Positions 6,894-50,933 of a stretch of DNA of 64,000 nucleotides are shown here, in pieces; the stretch's first letter is position 1, and every line of letters starts with the position of its first letter. Under the pieces are notes generated by a model that saw nothing but the letters and a program-made list of their open reading frames with translations, did no database searches and was not told the origin of the DNA. The stretch covers positions 1-64,000 of the IMG/VR virus record IMGVR_UViG_3300025728_000008; one strand, 5' to 3'. This DNA is from a virus. A program made the translations under genes and the position numbers.

Positions 6894-6949
6894 ATAAAAT
6901 CAACATTTTATCCTGTATTTTGGGTTCAATATTTACCGTCTATAGACGG
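6894..6949. repeat. composite site: ATAAAA-N6-TTTTAT + 24 bp + CCGTCTATAGACGG
   Basis: core at 6894-6911, perfect 14 bp palindrome at 6936-6949. Confidence 0.8.
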
Positions 6950-7397
6950 GATTTAAATTTTGCCTTTTTTCGATTTTCCCACTTTTCATAACTTTCTTGG
7001 TCTACAACATGCCAAAGGTCAAAAACATTCTTTATTATCGCTATCAGCATCATAAAAACAATCAAAGTACCTGCTGTGTATAATCCAAAGTCTATTAAGC
7101 TCATTTGACATCCCCTCCCTGTAAACCTATTATATCATTATTTTTAGTGACTGTCAACAAAAAAATAGCAGGTAAGAAAATTTTTATCCTACCTGCTGTA
7201 AAACCTTAAACAACATTACTGTACTTAATATATCGGCAGGTGAAGTTGCTTTTAAAATCTCTTTCACTTCAAACTTTCCATCTGACATATCAATCTTGTC
7301 AATCTTGTTCCAATATGCTATTATCCATTGTTCATCTGTCTTTAACTTCTTTCCAAACTTATTATGTAAGGCTGTGACATTCTGCATCAACTCTTGA

Positions 7398-9134
7398 CTA
7401 TTCTTCTTCTTCATGCTTATAGAAATCTTCCAACATTATTTGTGGTGTACAAATTTTTTCTTTCAATTTGAAATTGTAAAATTCATTCATAGACAACACT
7501 CCTACAGCATCAATTGTATCCCATTCATTTAGAATTGCACCATATCTACTATTTACTCTAAATTTAATTAGTTCCATTTCATCATATGTTGCAAATTTCA
7601 TTGTTTCAAAAGTTTTTCCGATACACTTTTTACTTTCAATTGTGATTCCATTTACTCTCACAATAATTTTGTCAAATCCATTGCCTGTCAACTTGTTGAA
7701 TTTTTCAATTGTACGAATATTTTCAATCGCTTCTTCTGGTGTCAATTCAAGGTCATACTCAATTGTTTGTTCATCACTATCAAGGTCTGGCAAGAATCGT
7801 TTAATGTACTCATTTAAGTTTTCTAGGTGTTCCGATGGCATTACAATACCACCTGCTTCTGGATGACCTAAAACCTCAATTTCACCAATCTCATTGAAAT
7901 CAGCTAAGAAGTCTTTTAATGGAAATCCTCCATAGCTACGGAAACTTCCACTGATTGTACCTTTGTGATTACGACCTACAATTACAGGACGTTTAAATGT
8001 ATCAGACATTTGTTGTGCTACAACACCATTAAATCCTTTTGATGTTTTGTCATCTAATACAACTAGAATTTTCTCTTTTAAATTTACTTTCTTAGAATAA
8101 GATTCTACTAAGTCCTTCTGAATGGCTCTACGTCTTTCATTCAACTTCTGCATCTTTAAACGTAGTGGTTTACATTTATTGTCATCATCTTCTAATAGTA
8201 AATCAATTGCTAGTCTTAATTCATCCATACGTGCTGTACCATTTAATAGTGGTGCGATTCCGAAACCAATTGCATTACAATCTAAATTCCAGTTGTCAAT
8301 CTTTGCACCTTTTAAAATACGTGTAAGTCCCATTGTCTTCACATTTCGCAATCCTTGCAAAATTAAATATCTATTTTCTGGGACATTGACTTTCATAATA
8401 TCTGCATACATTCCTACAGCAACTAAATCAATATAATCAAATGGGTCTACTTGGTCAAGTGTATCTTCCATTACTTGCATAACTTTAAATACTACTCCTG
8501 CACCAGATAACGCTTTATTCGGATATTTACATCCTTCTTGTTGAGGATTGACCATTAACACATGTGGATTAGGACGTTCAATTTGATGGTGGTCTAAGAT
8601 GATAATTTCTTTGCCTAATTCTTCTGCAATATACTTACATGCAATAGCATCATTTGAAGATGAATCAACTAAGATTAATAAATCACATGCCTTGATTTTT
8701 TCTAAGTTTTCTAGATTCAATGCTAATCGTTTAGTCTTAGATTCATCCTGTTCATCTTCTGGTAATTCTGATTGGTCTAAGCCTTTTATCTTAATCATAC
8801 TTGCAATACCATGACCATCATTTCTTTCACCATAAATGAAATCTACTTTATCAGTATAATTTCTCAAGTATCGTATCATTGTAGAAGCAGAAGTAAGTCC
8901 ATCTGCATCTGGGTCATATGATACAACAATATTTTGCTCTTTCATAAGAGCTAAGATAATTCTATTACCTGCTTCATCAATGTTCTTCATTAAATACGGG
9001 TCATGAAGCACACTTTCAGAGGGATTGAGAAACTCATCTAAGTCTTCAATCCCTCTAATTTTTGCTATTTGCTCACTGATATCATCACGCTTCCTTACTT
9101 TCACCTTCGCCTTGCGTTGAATCCACTTTACCAT
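7398..9134 (-). CDS. recJ: RecJ-like ssDNA exonuclease (DHH family; SPbeta YorK-like)
   Basis: YDPDADG, ILVDSS, ILDHH, GSFRS and GHPEAGG motifs; position in replication block. Confidence 0.9.
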   Translation of the reverse strand: MVKWIQRKAKVKVRKRDDISEQIAKIRGIEDLDEFLNPSESVLHDPYLMKNIDEAGNRIILALMKEQNIVVSYDPDADGLTSASTMIRYLRNYTDKVDFIYGERNDGHGIASMIKIKGLDQSELPEDEQDESKTKRLALNLENLEKIKACDLLILVDSSSNDAIACKYIAEELGKEIIILDHHQIERPNPHVLMVNPQQEGCKYPNKALSGAGVVFKVMQVMEDTLDQVDPFDYIDLVAVGMYADIMKVNVPENRYLILQGLRNVKTMGLTRILKGAKIDNWNLDCNAIGFGIAPLLNGTARMDELRLAIDLLLEDDDNKCKPLRLKMQKLNERRRAIQKDLVESYSKKVNLKEKILVVLDDKTSKGFNGVVAQQMSDTFKRPVIVGRNHKGTISGSFRSYGGFPLKDFLADFNEIGEIEVLGHPEAGGIVMPSEHLENLNEYIKRFLPDLDSDEQTIEYDLELTPEEAIENIRTIEKFNKLTGNGFDKIIVRVNGITIESKKCIGKTFETMKFATYDEMELIKFRVNSRYGAILNEWDTIDAVGVLSMNEFYNFKLKEKICTPQIMLEDFYKHEEEE

Positions 9135-9552
9135 TCACAATCTCTCCCTTTGAAACCTCATCCTCAAGATGGAAATTTTCTTCTGTGATATTTTTATTAA
9201 TATTTCCCATAGCTTCATATCCTTCTGCCATCTTAATGTGTCGTAAAAGTTTCGTAACACCTTCAACAAAATCAGCAGTAGCTTCTTGTAATAAGATTTT
9301 TTCTAATTCTTGTGCATCGAATACATCACCAACATAATTTGTAACTAAATCTAAATCATCCTTAGTGATTCCTAATTTAAACATTTGTTCCGCTAAAAAC
9401 GTTTGCATTTTATTCATTTCTAATACTGCCATACCTTTATTCATTTTTCTCACGTTATCAAGTATTTGTTGTTTTTTCATGTTCATTTCCCCTTTATATT
9501 ATTATTTTTTGTGTTTATGTTTAACAAGAAAGGCTAAGAAACTCTTAGCCTA

Positions 9553-9795
9553 TTATTTTTTGAATCCACCGAAAAATGTTACTTTACCGCCCATTTTCTT
9601 TGCTTCTAATTGAAGCTCTTTTTCAGCTTTGATTCGAGTTGTTGGAGATACCGTTGTAACCAACACATCCTTTTTAATTGTATTTCCTGCTTTGTCCTTG
9701 CTTGTTAATTCTACTACTGCATAGAAATGATGTCCTTTTACTGCTTTCATTTCAACGTGACGGTTGCCTTTAAGAATGTTTTTGTTAATTTTCAT
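9553..9795 (-). CDS. small basic hypothetical protein
   Basis: SD GGAGG; followed by hairpin aggctaaga-aac-tcttagcct. Confidence 0.65.
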   Translation of the reverse strand: MKINKNILKGNRHVEMKAVKGHHFYAVVELTSKDKAGNTIKKDVLVTTVSPTTRIKAEKELQLEAKKMGGKVTFFGGFKK

Positions 9796-9909
9796 AGTGT
9801 AATTCCTCCAATAAATTATTATTTTTTGTTTTTGTCTTTACTTTATTATATAATAATCATCATAAAAAGTGATGGATTATATCGAAATTAGTCGATTGCC
9901 TACGCCCTT

Positions 9910-18466: not shown

Positions 18467-18787
18467 TCACCTCCCTTTATTACGGATGTCTTTGTTCTTC
18501 ATTTTTTGTCGCTGATTAAGTTCAGCATCAACATCAACATCAATTAATTCAAATATCTGATTATAATTTACTTTTAACAATTCACATAATGCATAAGCAT
18601 ACAGAAATTTCCAACTGTTACGATTAGAAAGAATATTCATGAATCCCTTGTATGAAATCTGGAGACCAAACTCTTTACAAATTTTGTCATGGAGTTCTGT
18701 ATAGTCCATCTTTTGTGAGTCTAAAATGGCATCCAGTTTTGTCTTATTTAATTTGATGTCTTTTTTGTGAATCAAAAATGTACGCAT
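18467..18787 (-). CDS. XRE-like HTH transcriptional regulator
   Basis: AYALCELLKVNYNQIFEL resembles the XRE C-terminal helix; directly downstream of the YopR-like gene. Confidence 0.55.
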   Translation of the reverse strand: MRTFLIHKKDIKLNKTKLDAILDSQKMDYTELHDKICKEFGLQISYKGFMNILSNRNSWKFLYAYALCELLKVNYNQIFELIDVDVDAELNQRQKMKNKDIRNKGR

Positions 18788-18805: not shown

Positions 18806-19816
18806 TTATTTTGTGTAAGTTTGACGGATGATATCTAATGTCAAGAATCCTTTTAGATTGTGGTATGACTTCATATTAAATCGGTCTGCAACCACTTTTA
18901 GTTCATCTAAAGTAAGTTCTTCATCATTCATTTGTGATAGTAATTCATTTGCATAATAAACCATACCACTACGTTGTATAAATTTTGCAGTCAAACTTTT
19001 AATGCTTAATGTTTCTTTAATTACATCTAATCTTCTATAAATAACAAATTTGTCAGCAGGTTTATTTATATTGCTTTCATCTTTAACATTTGTTATAGAA
19101 GCTCTAATGACATAATCATTATCAATTAAATTTGTATATCTACCTACGTGTTCATTTTCCTCCATTTGACCATTTTTCTTTTCATATGTCTTTTGGTCAA
19201 TAGCTTCTTGAAGTAGGTCTAATGTGCGCTCATCAACTTCTAGATAACGTTGTGTATACTTTAATGGAAATCCATTATCATCTTCTTTTAATGTGTTAGT
19301 TAAGTGTATTCTACCGTTTGCCCAATCAATGTCAGACTTCTTTAGGTTTCGAATTTCACTCATTTGTTTGCCCCCAACACCGATGAATGATAATCTTAGT
19401 ATAACTGAATCTTGTGCATTCACACATCTGTCTTCATAACGTGCAAGCTGTTTCTCTGTCATATACTGTTCCATATTAGTTAGATACTTTTCAAAGTCAG
19501 TTGGCTTTAAGTCCTTTAAAACGTTATTCTTTACATATCCATGTTCAACACACCAGTTAAGGTAACTAGAGATAATACGACCATATGTTTCAGCAGTGTT
19601 TCTCGTGTTAGCCTTAAATCCGTATAATACTGTTTCCATTTCTTTTAATGAGAAGAAACGAATTTCTTTGTTTAATGATTCCTCGTGTGGTTTAGCATAC
19701 TCGAATATACGTTTATAACTTTTGGCAGTTGACTCGGCAATCTCACCTAAAAACTTCTTCTTTAGATTATCCTTATCAAATAAAGAATTATCATTTATGT
19801 TTGTCATGGCTGTCAT
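18806..19816 (-). CDS. tyrosine-recombinase-fold protein, probably non-catalytic; YopR/MrpR-like master repressor
   Basis: SAM-like N-terminus (STAKSYKRIF...GRIISSYLNWC); box I reads IGVGGKQMSEIRNL (no TGxR Arg) and box II reads KFIQRSG (no HxxRH); start set by SD GGAG. Confidence 0.7.
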   Translation of the reverse strand: MTAMTNINDNSLFDKDNLKKKFLGEIAESTAKSYKRIFEYAKPHEESLNKEIRFFSLKEMETVLYGFKANTRNTAETYGRIISSYLNWCVEHGYVKNNVLKDLKPTDFEKYLTNMEQYMTEKQLARYEDRCVNAQDSVILRLSFIGVGGKQMSEIRNLKKSDIDWANGRIHLTNTLKEDDNGFPLKYTQRYLEVDERTLDLLQEAIDQKTYEKKNGQMEENEHVGRYTNLIDNDYVIRASITNVKDESNINKPADKFVIYRRLDVIKETLSIKSLTAKFIQRSGMVYYANELLSQMNDEELTLDELKVVADRFNMKSYHNLKGFLTLDIIRQTYTK

Positions 19817-19985
19817 AGTGACCACTCCTAACTCTTGATTTTAGTCTTATTATATCCCCTTTTTCTAAACATATACCCTCTTTGTTACACATTTTTATCT
19901 TAACATTGATGTCGAATCATGTCAAAAAATTTAAGGTGGCAAAAGTTGCCTTTATAGAGGATATTTATTGTATGTTCATTTCTGG

Positions 19986-20041
19986 ATAAAAGTGCAGTTT
20001 TATCAAGATATTAAGAGTGTCATTTTATCCTTTATTGACGG
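19986..20041. repeat. composite site upstream of the YopR-like gene
   Basis: ATAAAA-GTGCAG-TTTTAT at 19986-20003, 24 bp, then TCCTTTATTGACGG at 20028-20041. Confidence 0.7.
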
Positions 20042-20101
20042 TACTTTTGATGACCTCTTATTTACTACTTAATTATATCATTAATTTTTTGGGCTGTCAA
20101 C

Positions 20102-30889: not shown

Positions 30890-32696
30890 CCCTTTTTATG
30901 TAATTATCGCTTCTTTAACAATCTGTATGAATGACCTTCTTTTTCAACATATTTAATTGCTTTTTGTAATTCTTTTTCATCTGTAAATACTTTTGCATAT
31001 TTAATATCATTAGTATACATAATTTGATATTTATTATTAATCGGATGTTTATATCTTTTTAAGAAAAATGACCCATCCCATGTAATTTGAATCACCTCAT
31101 TTAATCCACTATCCATTTCAACTTCTGTTTGCATGAATTTATAGTATTCACTGCTGTATCGCTCATAATCCTTTAAGAGACTGTTTATTACGTGTTGTGG
31201 ACTTCCTGCACTCATTCCTAATGCAATTGCCTTAGAAGTGCGATTCATCCCTTCCTCAAGCATATTAGCCTTATTTATAATTTCCGCTACATTCATATTG
31301 TCACTCTCCTAAATTTGAATTTCTAATTATTTCCATTCTACGATGATAGTCATCATTACTGTCACGATTATTATTTGGTTTTGGTTTAATTCTTGTAGGA
31401 CTACTTTTTCTTGTACTGCAAGAATGATTATTATCTTTTATTTCAATTTTAATTTTAGGCTTATAACCTTGTTCTTTCAAATACTGATTTGTTTCAGCTC
31501 TCACTTGCTTTAGTCTCTCTTTATCTTGGACTTCCTTCTTTTCTTCTTGCTTGCGAGTATGCACACCAAACGCTATTGAAGCCATGCATAGTATAAATAT
31601 TGAAGTCAAACCCAATAATCCTTCAATCATTGAATTTGTCATATTATCGTTCCTTCCAGTCTTCATGTAAATAGAATACATGAGTAGGTATTCCTGTTCC
31701 ATGCTGTCTATCATGGTGTCTAGTGTATCTGACACCATTTCTTTCTAGAAATTCTTCCATCTCATCATGCATATTGTCTTCATCAAACAAGATACAACAA
31801 CCATTTTGGAATAAATACTTTAATTCTTCTGCAAATTCAGTGAAATGACCTTTTTTAAGAGACATTTAATCACGCTCCTTTAATCGAATTAATTGTTCCA
31901 GTAATTCAATACGGGCTTCTTTCTTTGCTAATGCTTTACCATAACCCACATCATCAAATTCTTCCCATCCATCATAATCTCTTACATCAACTTCATGTTT
32001 TTTCTCCCATGCAAGATGCTCTTTTAAAGTGTTAATAGAGATACGATTCTTCAATTTCTTTTTTAATACCCTAACCATATCCGACTTTGCTATGTGGTCT
32101 TTCCATATTTTCATTACTGTGTCTGGATATCTCATAGCACCATCTCCTTAATAATAGTTTACTATATTTTGTTTCTTTTGTCAAGCGAATCATTAATTTG
32201 TTTTTATTTTATTTCTGTGAAGTAATTACAAGACATCAAAGCAAATTTATGACCATTTTTTATATAATATCCTTGTGGTTCGTTACTGTTGCCAAATAAT
32301 CTTACCCATAAAGAATCATCAAATGTCAATGGAATGTCTCTTGGTCTATCAAGCTTCACAAGATACAGAGTATTGCTATACCTTGACAATGTTACCCCAT
32401 GTAATTCAATTGGTTTATCAGTATCAAGATAAGTTTTAACATAACGCAATGAATCTTCACTTATATTTTCTGTATCAATCTTTACATATTGTTGTTTCAT
32501 TCGGATTCCTCCTTTGTCCACCAGTCTGTAATAAATTCTTTCACTTTAATATTGATATACATATCATTAAGAGGATAATAGACTTTCACATATTCGTCAT
32601 TGTATTTACCTTGAAACACCACAATGTCATCATCAGCATTTGTATATTCTTGACCGACAATAAATTCAAAAGTATAAGTTACTTTCTCCATATTAT

Positions 32697-32750
32697 CATC
32701 TCCCTTTGTTTTGTTACTCTTAGTATACACTATAATAATTCTCCCGTCAA
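32697..32750 (-). promoter_or_regulatory. sigmaA promoter/leader/SD module, 38 bp identical to 45215-45252
   Basis: catctccctttgttttgttactcttagtatacactata occurs at both loci. Confidence 0.8.
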
Positions 32751-33501
32751 GCGAAATTTTAATAATCTTCATCTTCTTCATAATCTTTTTTGTATTCAAC
32801 CACTTCACGGATTGCAAGTGGAATGTCATAGTAGTTCATCCATTTAAGAGCATTGTGAAATTCTTCTTCTGTATCATATGTTCTTGTTTCAACATACTCT
32901 TTCACACCGTGGTCATTACCTACTCGCACCTTAATTTCCCAATACTTTGATTCAACAATTAATTTTATCATAAAATCCCTCCTATTTATCTTCTGGGTCA
33001 TATTCTAATTCAATTTTAACTTTGACACCATCACCTAAATACTTTCCACCTGCTTCTGCAACGCTCCAGAATGCATCATATAGCTCCACAATCAAATTTT
33101 CAAGGTGTTTCTCTGTTGATTTAATTGGCGTAAACTGACCATCGTGAGACATCTCTGAAAGCATCTTATTATACTTATCACAACTTTTCTGGTCTTGCAT
33201 CGGAATATTGAAATTTAAAGTCTTTTTCCATTCCATATTAATTCCACCCTCCAGATTGTTTTTTCTTCATATCTAACAATTCTGAATCATAATTGATTAC
33301 ATATGTAAGTGCATCAATCTGTATATTCAATGTATTAATCAGATTCATTACACGAGAATAGTCTTTTTTCTCTTCATCAGACAGTTTAGACCAGTCTGCA
33401 ATACCGAAACCATTTTTTATTCCTCTTGCATCTTCTAATTGACCTTTTAATTCTTCACGCTTTTTTAATACTGTTTCTAATGATTTCATAGACATCTCTC
33501 C

Positions 33502-33783
33502 TTATTGTTTATCATAATTTTTTACTTCAAGATATGTAGTGTAAAAGTCATTTGTTTGATATTCTACCTTATATATTGCACCTTTTTCTAGTGGTTTTGG
33601 TTCATCATCCCAATACAGACTAACAACATTACCATTTTTATCTTCAAATATAGCTACTTGTTTTTCATATTTAGCTTTAACAACTGTATTTCCCACAAAC
33701 TTCAATTCTTTTTGTTCGAACGTTTGCCCACCGCCACACCCAACCAAGAGGACTAGAAACAATACTGTAATAAGTTTTTTCAT
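33502..33783 (-). CDS. lipoprotein
   Basis: lipobox LVGC. Confidence 0.7.
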   Translation of the reverse strand: MKKLITVLFLVLLVGCGGGQTFEQKELKFVGNTVVKAKYEKQVAIFEDKNGNVVSLYWDDEPKPLEKGAIYKVEYQTNDFYTTYLEVKNYDKQ

Positions 33784-33814
33784 TATACCACTCCTTTATA
33801 AAATTGAGTTTTTA

Positions 33815-33973
33815 TTAAAATAATCCACCATTACTACCTTGACCTCCATCATCCTTACCTGTACCACTGTCATCTCCACCTTTGGAGAAACATAACCAAG
33901 TTAGGATGATGAGAAATATTCCAAGTATTGTATAAATGATACCTCCTAATATTAAACCCCATATTGGATACAT
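33815..33973 (-). CDS. 52 aa membrane peptide, cassette-like, not in the ORF track
   Basis: MYPIWGLILGGIIYTILGIFLIILTWLCF plus Gly/Asp tail; SD GAGGTG. Confidence 0.6.
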   Translation of the reverse strand: MYPIWGLILGGIIYTILGIFLIILTWLCFSKGGDDSGTGKDDGGQGSNGGLF

Positions 33974-33998
33974 AATATCACCTCATAAAAGTAAACTT

Positions 33999-34157
33999 TT
34001 ATTCACCAAATTCTTTTCTATTAACATATAGAATATTATCACAAAGTTCATCAAAACATTTAATGCTACAAATACTTCCATACGCACTTCCAACAATATC
34101 CTCATCTTTTTCAGCAACTATTGTTCTTTCACATACAGTACAAGTTCCTTTTACCAT
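33999..34157 (-). CDS. 52 aa Cys-rich (Zn-binding) cassette-like ORF, not in the ORF track
   Basis: MVKGTCTVCER...ICSIKCF; SD AAGGAGG. Confidence 0.6.
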   Translation of the reverse strand: MVKGTCTVCERTIVAEKDEDIVGSAYGSICSIKCFDELCDNILYVNRKEFGE

Positions 34158-34189
34158 ATAAATTCCTCCTTGTTAAAAGTAAAATTTTA

Positions 34190-34393
34190 TCAATCTTCAT
34201 AGATAGAAACAACTACCTTTACCCTTTTCCCATTGTATTCTTCTAACAAATCCCCTAAATCTGCACCGTCATCTCCTATTATTTCGTGCCAGATATATCC
34301 ATAATGTTCATTGTCTCTGACAGTACCAACCATGACAACTTGTTCTGTTCCAGATGAATCCTTACCTATATGATAGCTCTTTTTATTTTTCAT
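34190..34393 (-). CDS. small hypothetical protein, cassette-like
   Basis: flanked by sites 34173 and 34410. Confidence 0.7.
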   Translation of the reverse strand: MKNKKSYHIGKDSSGTEQVVMVGTVRDNEHYGYIWHEIIGDDGADLGDLLEEYNGKRVKVVVSIYED

Positions 34394-36499
34394 ACAATCA
34401 TCTCCCTTGTTAAAATTAAGATTTTATTTACCAAACACCTAACAAAACACATACCCATATTAAACATGCACAAGACAATATATAACAGACAACACTTATA
34501 ATATTTCTCATTAAAACACCCTCTTTCCAATTGCTTTCTCTATGTCTTTTCTCCATTCGTTGTAAAGTTTTGTGGCATATTTATCTAAACCTAATTCTTG
34601 TATAACTTCTTTCACGTGAATTTTTAATTTGTCATAAGTTTCCTCATCGTAATCAATCTCAATCTCAAAACTTTTAACTAAGTCTTCTTTGCTTCCTGTC
34701 TCGGAATAATCAAAATCTATATCATCAATATCTTGATTGATTGAAAAGACATGAAACAATCCTTTTTCTGTTGTCAAGTATCCACACAAACCACCAAAAG
34801 CAGGAGGTGAAAATCCTCTTTCTTCCCATTTTCTCATAAGCATCTCTCCTTTGTATAAGTTAATTATACTACATTATGATTCTTTTGTCAAGCGAAAATT
34901 TTTAGACTCCGTATTTTACTAAACTACGAATTTCATCTACTGCTTTTGGATGTGCTTCTTCACATTGTTCTAATTCTTGTAAAACCTCTTTTGGAGAATA
35001 TCCTAATGAAATAGCTTCATTGAATGCATCTATTGTTTCTTGATACGTCATAGAATCATCCCATTAATCTTGCTTAATCGTTCTTCTAATGTCTCTAGGG
35101 CTTCTTTAACTCTATCATTACGCACTTTATGTGAAGCATGTTCAATATCTCCTTCAAACTCTGTATAAGCTCTAAGCTTGTAATTCATTCGTTGAATCAT
35201 TTTAAAAAGCACCATCACATCATTACCACTACGCTCATAAGTGTTGATAATGTTGAATAGCATAGCGTTATTTTCTTTACTTGCTTGCATTTTCATTTCC
35301 TGTACCTTTTTAGCAGTTTCGGATTCTGTTTGCCATTTGTCTTGTTCATACATACTCATTGAATCACCCCTATTTTACGTTTTTAAAAACTCCTTGCTCT
35401 TTCACATAATAATTATAAGTTGGTGCATATTTATCTACATAAGCCTGTGCATCATGACCATTATCAAACGATGTAATGTATGTAGAATCATTATCATCAT
35501 AATAAGCATCAAGCTTTTCAAATATACTGTAAATTGTTGCGACTCTAATAGTTTTCATTAAACCGCCCCTTTCACATATCGTCTAACGTATCTATAAACA
35601 TTATCACGTACTTCTGTATCATCCCAATCCCACTTCATAGCATCGTGATAGTATAATTCTTTAACGTTGATACCAATTTTAATTATTTCATCGTCACTTG
35701 GATTTTGACCTGTAATATCCTTATAACACATTACAATGATATCATTCATCGGCTTATCTTCTTCATTTTCTAAAGTATTCATGTATGCCAAAACCCAATC
35801 TAGCATATCGACTCTATCCATTTCTAATTCTTTTTCTAACTGTGTTCGAGTAGATTTAAGTTGTTCTTTTAATGTTTTCCATTTACCCATAACATCATCT
35901 CCTTATCTTAATTACATTTTATCACACTTCAAATCTTGTGTCAAGCGAATTATTTAATTACTTTTTCAAGTTTCTCAATAAAATAATTCAATGTATTCGA
36001 AACAGGGAAATCATAGGCTTCAAATGCTTTGTCTTTCTCTTCCTTCATTTCTGCTAAAATCTCCAGAATGCTTTCTGTGCTGTTTGGAGATAAGATAGAC
36101 CCTTTTGTATCATCAATCAACTCTCCAGAATCTATAACCTTATCTATCTCACTTCTCATGGAAAGTGCAGTGCTCTTGTATTTAACAAACACACTGTCAA
36201 TATCATTTTCATACTCATCATAGAATGCTAAAGATAAACCACTACCAATACCAGACCCACTTAACCCAATACGTACAGATGCACCTTTTTGTTTTATAAA
36301 CATTGGTGATAATTCATCATGAAATTTTTTACCCATTAGACATCTCTCCTTTTAATTTATTATTATATTCCTCTTGCATTTTTTTATCTTTCTTGTCATT
36401 ACCTAGTTCTCTACATGACCAACAATAAACTTCTGTTTCTTTTTGATTATACCAATCATGACACCATTTACATTTACACATTGCCATAAGCATTCCTCC

Positions 36500-36741
36500 A
36501 TAAAATCAGACTTTTATACAGATTTTTTAGCACCTCTAGGTAGTTTGCCAACTGTAAATGGCTTATTTAAATCTCTAGAGCATCTAAGCTCACCATTAAG
36601 ATTAACAAAGTAATAAGAGCCATCCATAATCACTTTCCGTTGGACTTGATGTATTTCTCCAAGATAATCAATTAATATAGTTTTCAATGTAGTTTCCATA
36701 GTTTTCATAGCATTACCTCCTTGATAATATGAGAATTTTAT
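36500..36741. repeat. pair of palindromic sites bracketing ORF 36514..36708
   Basis: ATAAAA-TCAGAC-TTTTAT and ATAATA-TGAGAA-TTTTAT. Confidence 0.75.
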
Positions 36742-37651
36742 CAGTCTACTCCTTTAGTCCAGTTAGCCAATAATCTTGCATGACTAATAACATGACTTTT
36801 AAATACTTTTACTAGACCTGCAACTCTCTTATTTTCTTGTGATTTTTTTGCAAATTCTTCGCTTGTAAGTTCTTCAACAATTTCATTTGTCAACTTTTGT
36901 ACTAATATAGCTTTTTCTTGTATATTCATAAACATTCCTCCTTATTCGTCATTCCAATGTGTTCCTGTCACTTTACGAACACAATCAAGCAAATGCAACT
37001 GCTTCTTTAAATCACCATCATGTAATGCATCTTCTAGAAGGTCTAGATAAGATTTAAGCTGTTCCATTTCACCTGCACCGATAACATATTGTACTTGCAT
37101 ATACATCACTCCTCATCATCATTTAAACAGTCTTCACAAGCGTTACAAGACCAACAATAAGCACATCCACAATCATTTCCACCACAATCACAACAATCAT
37201 ACATATACTCGCAATTACATGGTTTTGTCATATTATCGACTCCTTAGAATTAATGTATTTATATTCTTATTATTGTTACACCATGTACACTTACCGTTCT
37301 TTTCAATATTATAGAGTGTTAGACACGCTTTACAGCGTTTTGCTTTTGGTTTAATCATAATATCACTCTCCTATATAATATTGTAAAACATTGTTGGTAT
37401 CTATAATCTCGCCCGTTCCTTTAACATGAATATCTCCTTTTTCAGTTTGAACCGCCACACCATTATCCCAATCGTAATTAGAATGAATTGTCATATATGT
37501 TTCAACTTTCAAATAACTTGTTCTTGGTAAAACAACCTTATTCATAATTTCCCATGCTAGTTGATTAGCCATTTAACATCACTCCTTGTTTGTTTGTATC
37601 TTTATTATACAATACATTTTATGCTCTTGTCAAGCGAATGATACATTTATT

Positions 37652-38305
37652 TTAAAGAAATTTTACTGAATCAATATCTTCAACTTCAATTAATCCAGAA
37701 GATTCATTAATAATTCTAACTGCATCTCTGTCTACTGTGAAAGCAACTCTAGTATTCATAGCATTCCTTTGCTGTAATTCAGCATTGAATGTATATTGTT
37801 CATTAAATAACGCTTGCCCCGAATAACTAGTATAACACAATAATCTTCCATTTTCCTGTGTTGCTTTATCTAGAAGTGCATCAAGTCTTACTTTTTGTTC
37901 TTCTCTCATTTTTAGTACCATTTCAAGAGTAACCTTCCCTATTATTTCTACTCTTTTTCTTTTACTTATTTGTACACGTGAATTTGCAAAAGGAAAGACA
38001 TCTCTTTCTTGAGCTTTCATAATAAAATCGCCTACTTCTGGTATTTTCCCACCTTCTGCTTCACCATAAAAAGCAGATTTTTTATTTTTCATACAATAAT
38101 GATTCCATGAATCAACATAGAAAGTTACAAATTTTCTTTCCGTTGCTTCTTCTGTATGAGAAAACTTCATAACACCTACGGAATATCCATCTAGAACTAA
38201 TGTGTCTTTGTAATCCTCCTGCAATTCAAGCTGTGAAGGATAGAATCTACTCATTTTCTTATTTCCTTTTTTTAGAAAAAATGCCATTCTCTTCATTAGC
38301 ATCAA
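37652..38305 (-). CDS. hypothetical protein (N-terminal paralog of 48802..49482)
   Basis: FLKKGNKKMSxFxxSQLELQExY shared. Confidence 0.7.
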   Translation of the reverse strand: MMLMKRMAFFLKKGNKKMSRFYPSQLELQEDYKDTLVLDGYSVGVMKFSHTEEATERKFVTFYVDSWNHYCMKNKKSAFYGEAEGGKIPEVGDFIMKAQERDVFPFANSRVQISKRKRVEIIGKVTLEMVLKMREEQKVRLDALLDKATQENGRLLCYTSYSGQALFNEQYTFNAELQQRNAMNTRVAFTVDRDAVRIINESSGLIEVEDIDSVKFL

Positions 38306-38481
38306 CTCCTTGTTTTTGTTTGTACCTCAAGTATACCATTATCTTTTATGTAAGTCAACAACTATTTTCATCACCCCTTTATTATCTCAATAAGATGCAT
38401 CAAAGTTGTCATAATAGCAATACCCGTAAGGATTCCAAGTCCATATATTTTATGTCTTTCATTCATATAATCACCTCCTGC

Positions 38482-38978
38482 ATAAATCTAAAATTTTATC
38501 AATAACCAAACAATTCTCTACTAACCTCTTTAAACCCTTCTTTTTCAAGATGGCTTTTATAAATAGTCCATTCATTGCTAATGATTCTCTTGTTTGCATT
38601 GTAATGGCTACAAGTTAGACTATTACCATTATAACCAACATGTAATACGATATATGCTGTTGTATATCTTTCTGTATCTTGAGACAATACAAAGGTTTGA
38701 CCTTCTTTCAAAGTCTCATTCTTGAATTTGTTTACAACATCTAATAATATCATAACATCACCCTTTCATAAAACAATCCTTTTATCATTCTTTATATTCA
38801 AATATTGTCATAGTAAGTACGTTTAATTTACTAAAATCAACTTTCTCCAATAGTTTAACCATTGCTTTCTGTTTATCTTTAGCTTCAACATACTCAATAT
38901 CATATCCACCATTAACAGTTGCAAAAACAAATTTATAAGTATTCATAATATCTCCCCTTTATAAAAGATTTCTTTTAT
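38482..38978. repeat. array of 3 palindromic sites (38482, 38768, 38961)
   Basis: spacers CTAAAA, CAATCC, GATTTC; one ORF per unit. Confidence 0.8.
38785..38946 (-). CDS. 53 aa cassette-like ORF not in the ORF track
   Basis: MNTYKFVFATVNGGYDIEYVEAKDKQKAM...; SD AAGGGGAG; TGA overlaps site 38768-38785. Confidence 0.65.
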   Translation of the reverse strand: MNTYKFVFATVNGGYDIEYVEAKDKQKAMVKLLEKVDFSKLNVLTMTIFEYKE

Positions 38979-41548
38979 CTATAGATAATCAATCAATTTT
39001 ACATCTTTATTCAACATGTAATTCCCTTTGTAATCTATACCAATGATAGGATTGTTTTTATTTTGCATAGAAATAATATTGTCAATAAATTCTTTCTTTG
39101 TTTTGGTACTTCCTAATCCAACTAAGTATCCAACTTTACGTAAATGAGATATATCAATTCCTTGTATCTTATTATTCGGATACATTCTATTAAGATAAGC
39201 TTTCCTTTCTTCTTTATGCTTCTGATAATCTATTTGCCATTGCATCATATACATTCCTCCTATTCGATATCTAAATAAGAATATTGAACTATTCCAGACC
39301 AACAGACAGTATCCATTCTTATATCTGTAAATGTATCGTTTGTAAAGTGTATTCTCACTACCAAAGGCTTCCCCTCTGGCGAGTGGTGCGTTTCTTCTAC
39401 TTTTTTAATAGTAAACCCTTCTGCTAATCTCAAAGCCATTATAGGTATCATATAACCCCTCCTAATATTTGCTTGCTAATCTTATCAGATACACAAATCC
39501 AAGAATACATAGAAGCTTGACAATGTTTATCATTGATTCCATTTAATTTTGTCACATAATGTATAGAATATTGTTAGTTCTGTTTGGGTTAATAATTTAC
39601 CTTCATTCAATTTCTTCCAATCTATAATAATATTATCTCCATCCACTTTATAAGTTTTCTCTTCCATACAATCACTCCTTTTGTTCTTCTATTATCTTAA
39701 TAGCTATTTCTAAACCCCTCATACAACCACTCTTTTTAGTTGTATGAGGTAATTGTCTAAGTTGTGCTTTTGCTAATTCCTCGTGTAATCTGAGAAGAAT
39801 TTCAACCTTACTCATTAATATGCAAATCCAATAACTTAGCTGTCAATTGCATAAGAGATTTTCTTAATTCATCAATTCTTTCCTTAATGCTTTCTTTTGC
39901 TCCCTCATGATGTACCCGTTTTAAATCTTGTTCCAATATATTTATTTCTGATTTTACTTCTCTTATCTTTAATTGTGTGTGATGGACATGAAATTGAAGT
40001 TGTTCTTCTGGCGTTAATTCTTCTACAGTTGTATCTACATCAATGAAGTGCAATTTAAACCATGAATCATCATCTTCACTGCTCACACCATGAGGATTTC
40101 CTTGTTCATCCCATGCATACAATTCTCCATCTTGAATGTATGAAGTGTATGTTTTTCCTTTAAGGAAATAAAATAAGTGTCGTGATGAACCAAGAGGGAC
40201 ATCTTTTATACATTGAATCATACTAGTCATTAACATTACCTCCTTTAGCTTCAATCATGGCTTCAATTTCTTGTTTCAAACCATCAATCCGAGTTACATC
40301 AATCATATCCATTTGACGATGTACACGAGGGTCTAAATCAGTCATTTCAGTAAGGTTTGCCAATGCATTATATACTGCTCCACTAGCATCATCCAATTGT
40401 TTCCATACCGTTTTTAAATTGTTTACAGTTTTATTTATACGTGTCATATACATTCCTCCCGATATTTAGGTCTCACTAGCACCCGTTTTGATAATTCAAA
40501 GCACCATACTTTGCCTTCTGGTGATTCTTTTGATATATACCATGTTTGTATTCTAAATTTATCTTCTTCAAGCTCTCTTGCTTTTTCTAAAGCCTTGAAA
40601 TAGCTTGAATCCTCGATTGTCACATCAATGACTTCATAAACTGTTTTAGTTATCTTCATGCAGTGATACCAACTGGACTTCCTGTTGATTCTAAATGTTT
40701 AATAGATTCTTTCAGAATGCGTTTTGCACTGTCATATACTACATTTCCTAGTGCTAGACTAATATAACCTTCCATACCATCTCCACCAACCCAATCATCA
40801 GCAGGTGATATTTCATAATCATAACCACCACATTCTAAAGTAACTTCCATTCCACTTTCTAACAACTCAACTGCTTCATCAAATGTAATCATAAACAACA
40901 TCCTCTCTTTTGTTGATATCTTTAGTATACTATATTCTTATTCTTCTGTCAAGCGAATTATGAATAATTTTCAACAATTGTATATTTATTTGCTTTTGCT
41001 TCATCAATAGCTTCCTGTTCTGTTTTGTAGTAAATAGTTGTCAGTTGGTTGTTTCTTCCTAATAGAGAGTAATTACGACCAGAATTGAAACAATAAATAA
41101 CATATCCTCTATGAGTTAATCTGATTTGTACTTTCATCAACATCACTCCTTATAATTTTAATAAAAGGTAATCCGTTTTTATATTTCCTTGAGCAATTGT
41201 TGTAATCGTGCGATTTCTTTTTTAATTACATCTCTACGCTCCATTTTTTCATTGTCTATAGTTCTTTCATTGCTATGTTCAAATGCACATTCTAATCCTT
41301 CTATGATTGGTTCTATTCCTGTTTCAGCTTGTAATCGTATTAATACCCACCCCATAGTACTATATTTTACAGTAGAAGAAATTGTAAAGTCTTTAGTTAA
41401 AGAGCATGTTTGTAAATAAGCTCCATGACCTTTTTCATTTTCAACATTGAAATAATCTTTGCCTTTACTTGTTATTTCCCACTTACTATTATTTAGAACA
41501 TGATTTAGTACCTCTGTAAACGTCATAAACATCTCTCCCTTTATCTTA

Positions 41549-41605
41549 ATAAAATTGTGATTTTATACAAATTTCTTAGGTGGCTAAAACCCCGTCTATT
41601 AACGG
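41549..41605. repeat. composite site
   Basis: ATAAAA-TTGTGA-TTTTAT at 41549-41566, 25 bp, then CCGTCTATTAACGG at 41592-41605. Confidence 0.75.
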
Positions 41606-42069
41606 GATTCTAGCTCTTTGATTTTTTGCTCCCAATGTTCGATGCCATGCTTGTTAGTTGCTAATTGCTCAAGAATCTCAAGTCTTTCCTCTTGCATACG
41701 TTGATGATGCTTTTTAGCTTCATTTAACAATGATGTATGGATTAAATCAGCTACAGTTGCATCCTCTGGCATCGCTATTAATGGTTCAAATGTTAGGAAA
41801 TGTACTTTACCTCTTACATCATATTTATAGCGTTTATCTGCTGTGTATTCAATGTTATACTTCATAATTTTGTGGTACTCACCTTTGATGTGAATATCCC
41901 AACAATAATCTATTTGTAATCCTGTTTCATTTCTTTGAAGGATTTCATCTGTGATTGCAATGATTTCTTGATGAAGTTTTCCAATATTATCAAACTTTAC
42001 ACCTCTAAATTTTGCAGTTACCTCTGTATTTAATTGGTCAATTAACGATTTAAGTTTCATGAACACCAC
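41599..42069 (-). CDS. hypothetical protein
   Basis: ORF with SD and own sigmaA promoter at 42104-42132. Confidence 0.7.
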   Translation of the reverse strand: MVFMKLKSLIDQLNTEVTAKFRGVKFDNIGKLHQEIIAITDEILQRNETGLQIDYCWDIHIKGEYHKIMKYNIEYTADKRYKYDVRGKVHFLTFEPLIAMPEDATVADLIHTSLLNEAKKHHQRMQEERLEILEQLATNKHGIEHWEQKIKELESR

Positions 42070-42445
42070 TCCTTTGAATTTGTTTTGTTTTCTTATTATC
42101 TCAAGTATACATCATAATTATTCTTTTGTCAAGCGACTAAAATAAAATTCTTTTTAATTCTTCAACAATGTCATCTCGTGTTGGTTTATCCTGCCTAATC
42201 GTTGCAATTAAACATTCAATTTCCGTCCTCATATCATCTAAATGTTCTTGTGCTGTTACTTCTTCTGCTTCTTCTGCAAATGCATTTTCAAGCTCATCAA
42301 CTTCATCATCAATTTGTTTATATAATTCCAACACTTCATAGTTTGGCTCTGTTAAATCATAGAGGTAATTGTGGAGGGCTTTGACACCCTCCAGATTAGC
42401 CTTAGGTACGTTTACAATCATACACATATGCATTCCTCCTAAATG

Positions 42446-45309: not shown

Positions 45310-45315
45310 CTATGC

Positions 45316-47024: not shown

Positions 47025-47963
47025 TCCTCCTAGTCTTCTAGTTCATTTCTAATAAATGTATAACCTTCACCGAAATGACTTAATTGTGTGTAATATGTGA
47101 CTTCATCTTGACCATATAAACGTTGTTGAATCATATAAACATAACCACCAGTATGTGCATGTTCTACTCGACTTACAACTGTATATTCATATTCTTTACG
47201 AGAATACACATCACCTATTTTCATTAAATCACTTCTTTTCATAGACATTCCTCCTATATTTTACATTTGCATTTACGTTGTTTACATACAATGCATTTCG
47301 GAAGCGCTTTTGCCATTTCTATTAATTTCTGTTCAAACTCATCAGTCATTGTCTTTGTAGTAGTTGGTACATTGTTGATGATTTCAACCTTTACTCCACC
47401 AGACACATAATATCCTTGCTTATCCTTTCTAACATTTAAATATCCTGCATTTGTTTCTACTATCCACTCATTGTGATTACACCATGATACATTAAAGAAT
47501 AAGATTTCTGTATGATTCATGCACACCCCTCCAATTCTTCTCTGATTTTAGCTCTCAATTGCAGTTCTTCAATCAATTCTTCTCTACTCATTAAATCTGC
47601 TGAATATACTTCTAATACCCACATAGAGTCTCTTTGGTCTTTATATACTGTGAATAATGGTTCACCATTTTCTAGTATTTCATATGCATCATCATATTTA
47701 GTGTATAAAACACTATCAATGTATCTGCTTTCTGTTAAGTTTCTAAATCCATATCCTTCTGTGTCATTTAGCTTTTCAAATGTATCTCTCAACATGTCAA
47801 GGTTACGACCTTTTGCATTTGCTTGCCTAATACCTTCCTGCAACACGATTACAATACCATTTCTCATTTGATAGTTGATTGTCATCCACATCACTCCTTG
47901 TTTTGTTGTTAACTCTAGTATACTAAATTATATGTCTCTTGTCAAGCGATTATTCCATTTATT

Positions 47964-48737
47964 TTAAAATGGACAATCTAAATCTTCTTGTGTTAATTTT
48001 AATGGCTCAATCTTTTCAGCTTCATCAGATTCCTTCATTATACTATCAGTTCCAAGTAAACAATCTATCCACAAACTTGATGGTCTAGTTGTATACTGTC
48101 TTGCATATGGACGTACTACAATTCCTTCTGGTGCTACTCTCATTTCTTCTGCTCGTATTGGTTCTATTGTTCTTGTTCTTGAAATTAATCTTAAATCTGG
48201 CAAATCTGGGATTGCATCAATGTATCCACCTATGTTTCTATGTCTTTCATTAGTTGTTACTTCTTCAATAGCTTGATTCAATTGCTCTTTTAATTGATTG
48301 ACTTCTGCATCTTCTGTAGTTTCTTCTTTTACCTCTTCTACTTCTTTAGGTTTTTTGTATGGTTTGATAATATCTACATTTTCTGTATCACGTATAACAT
48401 AGCTTCCCCAAACTGTGTGCCTTGCATGTTCTTTCTTTACTTTGAAGATATAATCACCTTCTCGGTATTCCTCAACGCATCTATCATTCACATTATCACC
48501 GTAAAACTCCCAACCTCTTTTCCATTGAATATATCCACCTTTACTAGTATATAATTCAATGTAATCTGATTCATCAACCATTTCTGTTTCACCTGCAAAT
48601 GTAAATACTCCAATTGAATATTGTGGGTCTTCCAATTTCTTTGCATATGTTTCTTCTACACTGCGTTTTGTATCAAAGAACTTACCAATCATCTCATCAT
48701 TTTTTACTAATGCATATGCTTTAATTTCCATTAACAT
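47964..48737 (-). CDS. hypothetical protein
   Basis: 257 aa; SD AAGGGAG; promoter at about 48777-48805. Confidence 0.7.
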   Translation of the reverse strand: MLMEIKAYALVKNDEMIGKFFDTKRSVEETYAKKLEDPQYSIGVFTFAGETEMVDESDYIELYTSKGGYIQWKRGWEFYGDNVNDRCVEEYREGDYIFKVKKEHARHTVWGSYVIRDTENVDIIKPYKKPKEVEEVKEETTEDAEVNQLKEQLNQAIEEVTTNERHRNIGGYIDAIPDLPDLRLISRTRTIEPIRAEEMRVAPEGIVVRPYARQYTTRPSSLWIDCLLGTDSIMKESDEAEKIEPLKLTQEDLDCPF

Positions 48738-48801
48738 CTCTCCCTTAATTGTTTTATTGTTTTTGTTCTTGTAAACAGTATATCATTAATTTTAATTTTT
48801 G

Positions 48802-49482
48802 TCAATCCTCATTTGAAACTTTACCAATTATTTTTATGTGGTGTGTTCCATCTGCTTGAATACTACCTCTTTGATAACCTGCTTTTACTTTATCCATATC
48901 AAGTTCAATAATATAATCACTTGTGCTAGGGCTTCTATTCTCTGTTTCAAAGAAGCATGAGACAGTACACCAACCACTTTCGATTAAATCTGCACCTGCA
49001 CTATTTACATATAATCTGATTCTATTTTTACTTACCATGAATTGTTTTAGGTCTTCTAAGAAATCCTGTCTATACTTTTTCTTTAATTCTTTTAGACTTT
49101 CATTTGTATATTTTCCTAAATTTCTAATTCTTGCTTTTGGTGCAATTTTAACTGTTGTACTGTTTGTTTTTTCTATAATATCTCTCTTGTCAATTTCAAT
49201 TTTTGTGTTCCATGTTTCGGGAATCTCTCCCCAACAATCTTCATAATTAGCATAAAAATGATGACCTCTTTTGTTATATCCTAATCCACAATCATCTGTC
49301 CATAATGTAATATATTCTCTTTCATCTTTACTCTCAATATGTGAGTACTGCATTTTGCCAATTGTGTATTCATCTTGAGATAATTTATCACTATATTTCT
49401 CTTGTAATTCTAATTGTGAGAAGAAAAACTGACTCATTTTCTTGTTACCTTTTTTAAGGAAATATGCATTTCTATTTACCAT
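48802..49482 (-). CDS. hypothetical protein (paralog of 37652..38305)
   Basis: shared N-terminal ~60 aa. Confidence 0.7.
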   Translation of the reverse strand: MVNRNAYFLKKGNKKMSQFFFSQLELQEKYSDKLSQDEYTIGKMQYSHIESKDEREYITLWTDDCGLGYNKRGHHFYANYEDCWGEIPETWNTKIEIDKRDIIEKTNSTTVKIAPKARIRNLGKYTNESLKELKKKYRQDFLEDLKQFMVSKNRIRLYVNSAGADLIESGWCTVSCFFETENRSPSTSDYIIELDMDKVKAGYQRGSIQADGTHHIKIIGKVSNED

Positions 49483-49598
49483 TTAACCAACTCCCTGTTA
49501 TTTGTTGTTAAACCAAGTATAGCATGTATGTGTATCTCTTGTCAAGAGATTGTTTTAAAAATATTTGAGGGGATTTTTCACCCCTCATTATGTATGTA

Positions 49599-50384
49599 TT
49601 AATTATGTAAAATCTCACCTATGTCCGCCAATCCACCTATTGCTTCAATTTGACCTAACATCATATCTTTATAACTTTCAAAATATCCTTGTGCTTCTTT
49701 ATGTAGTTTTTCATTAATCATTATTGCCATTGGATAGATAACTTCTTCATGTGTTTGGTATGTATCAAAATGTCTTCTAAAATCTAATTTATCTATGACA
49801 CCATATCCATATTGTTTCTTGTCAAATTCACCAAAATCAACTATAACTGGTAATCCTGTATGCTTATCAATCATAACGTTTCCGCTATGTAAATCATCTG
49901 GACTGAATCCTGCTCTCATTATATCTTTAATTAGTTCTTTATATACATGATTGAAACGGGTACTAACAAAATTATCAATCTTTCCACTTCTAACTTTGTA
50001 ACGATAACTTGATATAGTATATCCATCAACTTTACTCATTATGACTGCTTTTACTTCTTTATTGTGATGGAATACCCCGTATAAACGGGGCACATGTTCC
50101 AGATGTTGTAATTGCCCTAATACTGAAATATCATGACTGCGCCAATATCCATGTTGGAATACTTTAATCGCATAATCTTTATATCCGAAAACAATTGCTT
50201 GTGCCCCGTGACCTAATTCATCCCAATCATCTAAATTATCTCTTCCCATAACTGCATTTTCTAACTTGCTACATATATATTCAAAGTCATCTAAATTTAT
50301 GTTTGGATTTAATCCTTTAAATTGTAAGTTTCGCATTCTTTCATTTAACGGGTGGTTAATAATATAGTTATCATGTTCTCCCAT
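49599..50384 (-). CDS. Ser/Thr protein kinase-like protein
   Basis: LGHGAQAIVF, AIK, DLHSGNVM and IVDFG. Confidence 0.85.
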   Translation of the reverse strand: MGEHDNYIINHPLNERMRNLQFKGLNPNINLDDFEYICSKLENAVMGRDNLDDWDELGHGAQAIVFGYKDYAIKVFQHGYWRSHDISVLGQLQHLEHVPRLYGVFHHNKEVKAVIMSKVDGYTISSYRYKVRSGKIDNFVSTRFNHVYKELIKDIMRAGFSPDDLHSGNVMIDKHTGLPVIVDFGEFDKKQYGYGVIDKLDFRRHFDTYQTHEEVIYPMAIMINEKLHKEAQGYFESYKDMMLGQIEAIGGLADIGEILHN

Positions 50385-50877
50385 ATTTTCATCCCCTTTG
50401 TGCCAATTTGTGTTAAGGCTAGTATACTATTATTTTTTGTGCTTGTCAACTACTAACTGTAACTTTTAATCTATTATATAATTCGACACGTAAACAATTT
50501 ATTTCTTTATCACTTATAAACAATTGTGATGCATCAATGATTGACATCCCCATTCTTTCAATATCTCCTACATATAATTCATTGTCTAAGCCAATATTCA
50601 CCATATTCATTAACTGTAATGAAACCATACGATATTCTTTTGATTTTGTCATGAGCAACAACTCCCTTTGTTTTATAGTGTATCTTATGTGATTATATTT
50701 GATGTGTGACTTGTTAGGGGTATATTGTTTTAAAAATAGTATTTGCACCCAGATTTTTATCTGTTTTGAGCCAATAATATATGAATCTTTGTTTGGGGCG
50801 CAGGACATTCAAAAAAATACTCTCATTAAAATATTCGTTCGTTCCATGCCAATGAAACAATACAGGCGAAAACGTGG

Positions 50878-50933
50878 ATAAAATACGAATTTTATCAAGA
50901 AAAACAGGTGCAAAATGTTCCGTCTATTGACGG
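50878..50933. repeat. composite site
   Basis: ATAAAA-TACGAA-TTTTAT at 50878-50895, 24 bp, then CCGTCTATTGACGG at 50920-50933. Confidence 0.8.

Follow-up and report, generated by a model that had tools for sequence, protein, structure and literature searches.

MrpR, the master repressor of SPbeta, has the tyrosine-recombinase fold but has lost recombinase activity, and it binds a dispersed repeat, SPBRE, and represses at about ten promoter regions (PMC10516654). SroF of phi3T, a member of the same MrpR/YopR/SroF family, clamps a 26-bp box as a monomer (bioRxiv 10.1101/2025.11.27.690993). Here we describe composite DNA sites in a 64,000-nucleotide stretch (the window), which comprises bases 1-64000 of the 159,412-bp virus record IMGVR_UViG_3300025728_000008. 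The window is part of a 159-kb Tsamsa-like (“Tyrovirus”) temperate Bacillus phage, with nucleotide identities of 88-89% to Bacillus phages C30-3, vB_BanS-Thrax5 (Thrax5) and pW2 and of about 79% to Tsamsa and its kin; such large temperate siphoviruses have been grouped as Tyroviruses (PMC3903500, PMC9703825). Its genes lie on the minus strand from position 1 to about 52 kb. Each composite site pairs a core palindrome, ATAAAA-N6-TTTTAT, with an arm, a 14-bp quasi-palindrome whose consensus in this phage is CCGTC-TATW-GACGG. We tentatively favour, with a confidence somewhat short of even, the reading that these sites are bipartite protein-binding operators of a lysogeny and early-gene control module, which would gate five leftward operons and autoregulate a repressor operon.

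An original prediction, made from the letters of the window, had listed four such loci with gaps of 24, 24, 25 and 24 bp between arm and core, three of them with a core extended to GATAAAA-N6-TTTTATC, and had placed the GC-rich palindrome always on the transcriptionally upstream side. All four are found where it put them, with these gaps and these three extended cores, and the arm is indeed upstream relative to the minus-strand genes; the list was incomplete, as it lacked a fifth composite site elsewhere in the genome and an inverted second arm at site 2. Read in gene direction, the four loci run from an arm, CCGT(C/T)(A/T)ATA(G/A)A..., through 24 or 25 bp to the core. The elements are as follows.

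6936-6949, minus strand: arm of site 1, CCGTCTATAGACGG, overlapping the stop codon of open reading frame (ORF) 6940-7104
6894-6911, minus strand: core of site 1, gap 24 bp, directly before the ribosome-binding site and ATG of ORF 6693-6878
20028-20041, minus strand: upstream arm of site 2, TCCTTTATTGACGG (minus strand CCGTCAATAAAGGA)
19986-20003, no strand assigned: core of site 2, gap 24 bp, at the centre of a dyad of about 94 bp, arm-24-core-24-arm
19948-19961, minus strand: second arm of site 2, in inverted orientation, gap 24 bp (plus strand GCCTTTATAGAGGA)
41592-41605, minus strand: arm of site 3 (minus strand CCGTTAATAGACGG), overlapping the stop codon of ORF 41599-42069 and lying within a dyad with a 14-bp stem
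41549-41566, minus strand: core of site 3, gap 25 bp, before the ribosome-binding site and ATG of ORF 41179-41532
50920-50933, minus strand: arm of site 4 (minus strand CCGTCAATAGACGG)
50878-50895, minus strand: core of site 4, gap 24 bp, with no ribosome-binding site alongside
139905-139961 of the genome, outside the window: site 5, the fifth composite site

Chance is excluded as the source of the arm–core pairing. Exact cores number 12 in the window, against 0.16 expected, and 18 in the whole genome. With at most one mismatch, CCGTC-N4-GACGG occurs at four places in the 159-kb genome; three are composite sites, 24-25 bp from a core, and the fourth (14808) lies inside coding sequence. This genome-wide search had been set beforehand as a test of co-occurrence, and the arm does not occur mostly without the core. 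Across six related complete genomes, 19 of 48 STC-WATW-GAS motifs stand 23-26 bp from a core, where 0.06 would be expected. A scan of viral contigs for the 14-mer CCGTCTATTGACGG was uninformative, returning 114 unrelated random matches, none with a core.

Under a looser criterion, at least seven of the eight central bases, 31 arms were aligned. The Tyrovirus family consensus reads CC[C/G]TC-TATW-GA[G/C]RG. Every aligned arm has T4 and A11, and nearly every one has C5, A7, T8 and G10; T occupies position 6 in 27 of the 31, while its partner, position 9, is A or T equally. The arm, previously described as a palindrome, proves quasi-palindromic rather than strictly symmetric, as only 8 of the 31 can form all five Watson-Crick pairs. 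The gap is 24 bp for 19 arms, 25 bp for nine, 23 bp for two and 26 bp for one, and in all cases the arm is upstream of the core relative to transcription. The dyad centres of arm and core are thereby about 40 bp apart, roughly four helical turns, and face close to the same side of the DNA. It had also been proposed that spacing rather than intervening sequence is conserved; the spacing is indeed conserved, yet the spacer is not wholly free, since AAAAT(C/A) recurs on the core side of the arm, a weak AAGGT-like patch mid-way, and CAAG or ACAG adjoining the core. On its far side the arm is flanked by GATTTT.

Loss of spacing in relatives had been named beforehand as an observation that would count against the composite architecture, and the gap is conserved. 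Thrax5 has all five sites with gaps of 24-25 bp and diverged spacers, most clearly at site 4, and the five sites are syntenic across subfamilies. Ahead of the gene downstream of site 2, which encodes an MrpR-like protein, the layout P1-arm-24-core-24-arm-P2, in which P1 and P2 are tandem promoters, recurs in Thrax5, pW2, Tsamsa, Skywalker, Nate, Kirov, PBC2 and also FADO, where identity of the MrpR-like protein is just 59%; the BcoS-136 record ends at the core, so that only core-24-arm is visible there. Position, orientation and spacing of the sites are conserved out to Kirov, PBC2, FADO and BcoS-136. Arms were not found in phi3T or Geobacillus virus E3, both of which have cores, and in the genomes compared the arm is restricted to Tyroviruses. 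Separately, the FADO record carries three direct arm repeats at positions 62987, 63064 and 63139 (CTCTCTATAGACAA twice, then CCCTCTATAGACAG), at intervals of 75-77 bp and with no core nearby, which may be an array for an arm-binding factor. We also considered whether the arm is the conserved C-terminus of paralogous upstream genes and rejected this: the frames read SRL*, SR* and YRQ*, and no real gene ends at sites 2 and 4.

Site 2 is the sole two-armed site, and it stands between the tandem promoters of two genes for putative DNA-binding proteins. These genes, with the promoters and the hairpin that accompany the sites in the window, are as follows.

20072-20100, minus strand: site 2 promoter P1, TTGACA-17-TATAAT with TG, the end of its -10 element 30 nt before the upstream arm
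19897-19925, minus strand: site 2 promoter P2, TTGACA-17-TAAGAT with TG, downstream of the second arm and ahead of the MrpR-like gene
18806-19825, minus strand: gene for an integrase-fold protein of the MrpR/YopR/SroF family, 339 aa, by Pfam and PDB matches
18467-18787, minus strand: gene for an Xre/Cro/CI-type helix-turn-helix (HTH) protein, 106 aa, by predicted fold, co-directional and 18 bp after the MrpR-like gene
7129-7157, minus strand: site 1 promoter, consensus sigma-A TTGACA-17-TATAAT, the end of its -10 element 179 nt upstream of the arm
42104-42132, minus strand: site 3 promoter, sigma-A TTGACA-17-TATACT, 498 nt upstream of the arm
50980-51008, minus strand: site 4 hairpin, terminator-like, behind the HD-domain gene 51005-51781 and 46 nt from the arm on its upstream side

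The 339-aa protein matches MrpR_N_CB (PF22822, 1.7e-23) and MrpR_C_cat (PF22823, 5e-14) in Pfam and, in the PDB (8a0a, 8bj6, 9rd5), the solved MrpR/YopR structures and a related core-binding-domain chain, 9rd5_H, with E-values of about 1e-20; this chain probably represents phi3T SroF. Over 200 members of the family were found. Box I is GVGGKQMSE, without the arginine, and box II KFIQRSG, without H-x-x-R, both in the window protein and in 45 relatives; these changes parallel the MrpR substitutions at V137/S138, N254 and V257/R258 (PMC10516654 Table 3). By these box residues the protein is a catalytically dead family member. The DNA-reading helix of SroF, K-F-x-x-H/Y-R, is kept as DKFVIYRR. The gene, gp94 in Tsamsa and gp175 in Thrax1, is called an XerC-type recombinase in the Tyrovirus paper (PMC9703825).

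The 106-aa protein has no match in Pfam or PHROGs, and phmmer against the PDB returned only noise, but its predicted fold (predicted local distance difference test, pLDDT, 82.5) is that of an Xre/Cro/CI HTH protein and resembles VanUg, CylR2, TP901-1 CI, SinR and 434 Cro. Its gene comes next after the MrpR-like gene in all Tyroviruses examined and also in Alicyclobacillus phage KKP_3916; no homologue was found in phi3T or E3, so that Tyroviruses have both arms and the Xre-like gene, while phi3T and E3 have neither. In KKP_3916, a LexA-type SOS box (CGAACATACGTTC) lies about 150 nt upstream of the gene pair, where Tyroviruses have arm-core-arm.

Because the MrpR-like and Xre-like proteins are encoded beside the sole two-armed site, which lies between their tandem promoters, we take them as the candidate binders. 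The Tyrovirus-specific arm would be one recognition element and the extended core of the SPbeta supergroup the second, and the centre-to-centre spacing of about 40 bp would let two proteins, or two domains, act together: an Xre-like dimer or the MrpR-like protein may read the arm, and a second protein or domain the extended core. That two proteins or domains bind in helical phase had been proposed before. The anatomy, namely the fixed spacing, the distance of about 40 bp and the two DNA-binding-protein genes by site 2, supports this, while binding itself, the assignment of binder to element and repression as the outcome are what we infer. The two-factor operator, put forward earlier as one alternative, likewise fits the anatomy and the two neighbouring genes.

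At site 2, the two-armed complex between P1 and P2 would autoregulate the repressor operon. The four other sites lie past a consensus promoter and usually past the first gene, the promoter being 179 nt away for site 1 and 498 nt away for site 3, with site 4 following the terminator-like hairpin, and a bound complex there would most simply be a roadblock or a loop anchor. Occupied sites would in this way gate or block transcription from strong sigma-A promoters into five long leftward operons. Behind these four other sites the operons include, by the Thrax5 annotation, a macro-domain gene and repair genes, nicotinamide adenine dinucleotide (NAD) salvage genes, an alarmone synthetase with a Ser/Thr kinase, and a nucleotide-metabolism/DNA polymerase block. 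Around site 4, the HD-domain gene 51005-51781 precedes the site, and ORF 50446-50808 (120 aa), directly after it, lacks a clear ribosome-binding site and may not be a gene; farther downstream, the 49599-50384 region holds, by the Thrax5 annotation, an alarmone (guanosine tetraphosphate, ppGpp) synthetase/hydrolase-like gene and a Ser/Thr kinase.

Compared with SPBRE and SroF boxes, the Tyrovirus sites share a temperate phage background, a homologous repressor-family gene (E about 1e-20) with the DNA-reading residues kept, and a handful of dispersed lineage-specific boxes, including some at regulator genes; here there are five arm-bearing sites, with two arms by the MrpR-like operon. Of the five SroF boxes in phi3T, three lie immediately beside or overlap an ATAAAA-N6-TTTTAT core (107906-107948, 121039-121081 and 125051-125091) and precede a ribosome-binding site, so that a lineage-specific box is paired with the generic core there as well. 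The arm differs, however, in being unrelated to TAATTTTATTTTTATTCT, quasi-palindromic and 24-25 bp from the core rather than abutting it; moreover, the Tyroviruses have an Xre-type partner gene, all sites save site 2 lie well downstream of promoters, and binding is here predicted. A box like TAATTTTATTTTTATTCT, at up to three mismatches, was not convincingly found in this genome, Thrax5 or Tsamsa; with repressors only about 26% identical, a different box is to be expected. The arm also recalls the operators of Cro/CI/Xre proteins (lambda, 434, TP901-1 CI), being a 14-bp dyad with a conserved centre, placed beside and between the promoters of a regulator operon that also encodes a small HTH protein of that predicted fold. 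Unlike those operators, it is only partly symmetric, occurs in five dispersed copies, each at a fixed distance from a second, different palindrome, and is not embedded in a divergent cro/cI switch layout.

The proximity of site 2 to an integrase-fold gene could also suggest a full site for site-specific recombination, of the attI, res or attP kind, at which a tyrosine recombinase would exchange strands in the core and use the arms as accessories. The core does have tyrosine-recombinase geometry, inverted arms around a 6-bp spacer, often extended to CTTG...CAAG, although geometry alone is not specific, and two further Phage_integrase genes lie at 74.2 kb and 99.7 kb of the genome. But the adjacent protein, with neither the box I arginine nor the box II H-x-x-R, departs from the catalytic set R-K-H-R-H/W-Y as does MrpR, which is no recombinase (PMC10516654), and the candidate attP has been placed elsewhere, after gp50 (PMC9703825). 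The 6-bp spacer differs in 12 of 12 exact cores of the window and in 18 of 18 of the genome, leaving no shared overlap region, and such differences are incompatible with ordinary tyrosine-recombinase strand exchange between sites. In two relatives compared in detail, no breakpoint of cassette gain or loss falls inside a core spacer; rather, core and spacer move with the downstream gene. In the comparison with C30-3, a shared gene brings its core and spacer along while the upstream gene differs, and the same gene is found with or without a core. Since the spacers differ and the core travels with the downstream gene, next to a member of a dead family, the attI- or res-like full site raised by the original prediction is highly improbable.

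The 9 kb of small genes at 32100-40970 carry many simple cores, are missing from Thrax5 and are mosaic relative to C30-3, and in this hyperplastic region ends of homology blocks often coincide with cores (33819, 36499 and 38972). The density of cores in the region (32.1-41.0 kb) and the frequent ending of homology blocks against C30-3 and Thrax5 at cores would fit a passive origin, in which a terminator-plus-linker cassette spreads by duplication or short-homology recombination, like the promoter early stem-loop (PeSL) cassettes, with no dedicated binding factor. Both PeSL cassettes of T4-type phages and integron attI-attC sites resemble the present elements as short palindromic repeats at the boundaries of small accessory genes, in hyperplastic regions and at mosaic junctions; here, by contrast, the element contains no promoter and has no linked active recombinase, spacers are heterogeneous, and the composite sites are syntenic and stable. 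Duplicated cassettes would keep their spacers, whereas spacers diverge while arm, core and distance stay fixed; the five sites are not mobile; and the site 2 dyad is conserved ahead of a regulator operon. We therefore consider passive spread very unlikely as the source of the composite sites.

A stronger challenge comes from the RNA level, because arm and core would both be transcribed from the upstream sigma-A promoters and could form two hairpins in an intercistronic leader, the arm serving as a factor-recognised terminator or antiterminator (nut/boxB-like) or as a processing or stability hairpin, and the core as a generic hairpin between stop codon and ribosome-binding site. Every site is downstream of strong promoters and usually past the first small gene, like lambda nutR; A-tracts and GATTTT flank the arms, and GGTTTT follows in gene direction at about half of the sites; and the arm motif of a convergent junction near genome position 129000 stands 24-26 bp from a core and is truly a terminator in both directions. 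Like lambda nut sites (boxA-spacer-boxB), the composite sites set two short elements at a fixed distance downstream of early promoters, and sites 1, 3 and 4 can each fold a GC stem of 5 bp closed by a small loop. RNA folding is strong at site 3, with its 14-bp stem (z -6), and over the whole site 2 dyad (z -3.5), yet sites 1 (z -1.3) and 4 (z -2.1) fold no better than shuffled sequence, and an Rfam search matched no family.

The 31 arms show sequence rather than structure to be conserved. At most three Watson-Crick pairs can form in 12 of them, in which the stem is thus lost, and overall Watson-Crick pairs make up 117 of the 155 possible. Variation at position 3 is independent of that at position 12, with CTC...GAC combinations common, and allowing G-U pairing favours neither strand, so a hairpin stem kept by covariation across sites, as expected of a nut-type element, is not what the arms display. 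In cores, single-arm changes are never seen to be compensated, and no covariation was found among the N6 positions. No N-like protein was identified, and although simple cores show a direction and occupy a fixed place between a stop codon and a ribosome-binding site, one core is conserved within coding sequence, where a linker role is impossible. We accordingly hold the RNA-level explanation to be unlikely for the composite sites. As the sequence is conserved without upkeep of a stem, recognition of the arm by a protein, as double-stranded DNA rather than as a selected stem, is favoured.

A DNA-level alternative is an activator-dependent promoter, in which the left half of the core would be a -10 element (TAAAAT, often preceded by TG) and the arm, near -45, would bind a phage activator, for example the Xre-like protein, that recruits host RNA polymerase without a -35 element. 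CI-type HTH proteins can activate from sites near -42. The sequence cTTGATAAAAT at sites 2 and 4 fits an extended -10 element, site 4 comes after a terminator-like hairpin, and the arm invariably lies a set distance upstream of the core. On the other hand, TG stands at the correct offset in only about one-third of the composite sites, no consistent -35 is present (candidate hexamers are 13-16 nt from TAAAAT), a consensus sigma-A promoter already occurs every 1-3 kb, and the model accounts neither for the inverted second arm of site 2 nor for the palindromic right half of the core. Such a promoter is quite unlikely. The core as an ordinary sigma-A promoter was rejected, again for want of a consistent -35 element, and by eye no consensus of extracytoplasmic function (ECF), sigma-B, sigma-H, sigma-54 or sporulation sigma factors, nor any Fur, ComK, CodY, DnaA, LexA or IHF box, fits across the sites. 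A Pfam Sigma70_r2 search found no sigma factor in the genome, and tblastn at 1e-5 with all phi3T ORFs of at least 120 aa, which should include YonO, found no RNA-polymerase-like match; a promoter specific to a phage RNA polymerase or sigma factor is therefore unsupported. Along window positions 1-52000, sigma-A promoters of consensus or near-consensus form (TTGACA-17-TATAAT or TATACT) number at least 30 on the minus strand, roughly one per 1-3 kb, and the density of perfect -35 hexamers there is unusually high.

The core extends well beyond the arm-bearing sites. Every Tyrovirus examined has 14-30 exact copies, whereas a reversed control gave none; phi3T has 14, Geobacillus virus E3 17, Perkons 9, KKP_3916 2 and Sundance 0. 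At up to one mismatch, phi3T has about 33 and E3 about 52, mostly just ahead of ribosome-binding sites. Across the genomes counted, the core is thus SPbeta-supergroup-wide (phi3T, Geobacillus E3, Perkons). When 150 cores were oriented, the upstream stop codon abuts or overlaps the left arm of the palindrome and the ribosome-binding site begins 2-3 nt past its right arm; position 18 is variable (T to A in 17%) and position 1 invariable. In this alignment the simple cores behave as a directional gene-to-gene linker.

Some cores cannot be linkers. Outside the window, a core at genome 108575-108592 (Thrax5 45079) lies within the tape-measure protein gene, where it encodes NKISILS; in six genomes 12 of its 12 arm bases are kept, while the flanks are 62-86% identical and the spacer is variable, a pattern that suggests DNA-level selection. 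Another, also outside the window at genome 98228-98245, has the spacer TTGAAA (TTGACA in FADO) with TATAAT 17 bp downstream, and so sets a sigma-A -35 hexamer exactly between the palindrome arms, upstream of the neck/recombinase/tape-measure block. Several further cores at convergent or late-region junctions likewise cannot act as linkers. A series of “backbone” cores, at genome 86435, 98228, 108575, 128962, 139905 and 151916 and at window 6894, 19986, 41549 and 50878, is spaced by about 10-12 kb, or multiples thereof, around the genome; among the six exact cores of the late half, no two lie closer than 10.3 kb (P about 0.009 under random placement), and the syntenic series is common to Thrax5, Nate, Tsamsa, Kirov and FADO. 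It is conceivable, though rather doubtful, that the arm–core sites and the backbone cores form a genome-wide scaffold on which the integrase-fold repressor, together with its Xre-type partner, assembles in fixed helical phase and so silences a plasmid-type prophage of 160 kb. If so, this would be a new bipartite operator architecture for domesticated recombinases, with an ancient palindrome common to SPbeta-like, Tyrovirus, E3 and Perkons phages as its second element.

Several observations weigh against the bipartite operator we favour. ChAP-seq (chromatin affinity precipitation sequencing) of SPbeta MrpR gives about ten peaks, at SPBRE only (PMC10516654), and the generic core itself is therefore probably not an MrpR-type box. 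The arm sequence is unrelated to the phi3T box, and SroF binds as a monomer on an asymmetric box, where the arm is quasi-palindromic. The co-occurrence of arm and Xre-like gene amounts to a single evolutionary event. Except for site 2, the sites are off the consensus promoters, 179-684 nt downstream, so that repression would need a roadblock or looping. Finally, the stop-codon-to-ribosome-binding-site directionality of most simple cores points to a role at the RNA or translation level, and many arms, with their A-tract and GATTTT flanks, resemble intrinsic terminators.

In the literature searched on Tsamsa, Tyroviruses, SPbeta, MrpR and YonO, we came across no account of the arms, of the composite sites or of the generic palindrome, and the core can be tested directly in the SPbeta and phi3T systems. 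On balance the composite site may be, with chances we put a little under even, a new form of the dispersed operators of an integrase-fold phage repressor. Tyroviruses, large and temperate, infect the Bacillus cereus group, to which B. anthracis belongs. If the operator reading is true, their MrpR-like gene would be reassigned from an XerC-type recombinase to the integrase-fold repressors, the five operons together with autoregulation would be its candidate regulon, and the bipartite design, a lineage-specific box in fixed phase from a generic palindrome, would be one seen also in phi3T.

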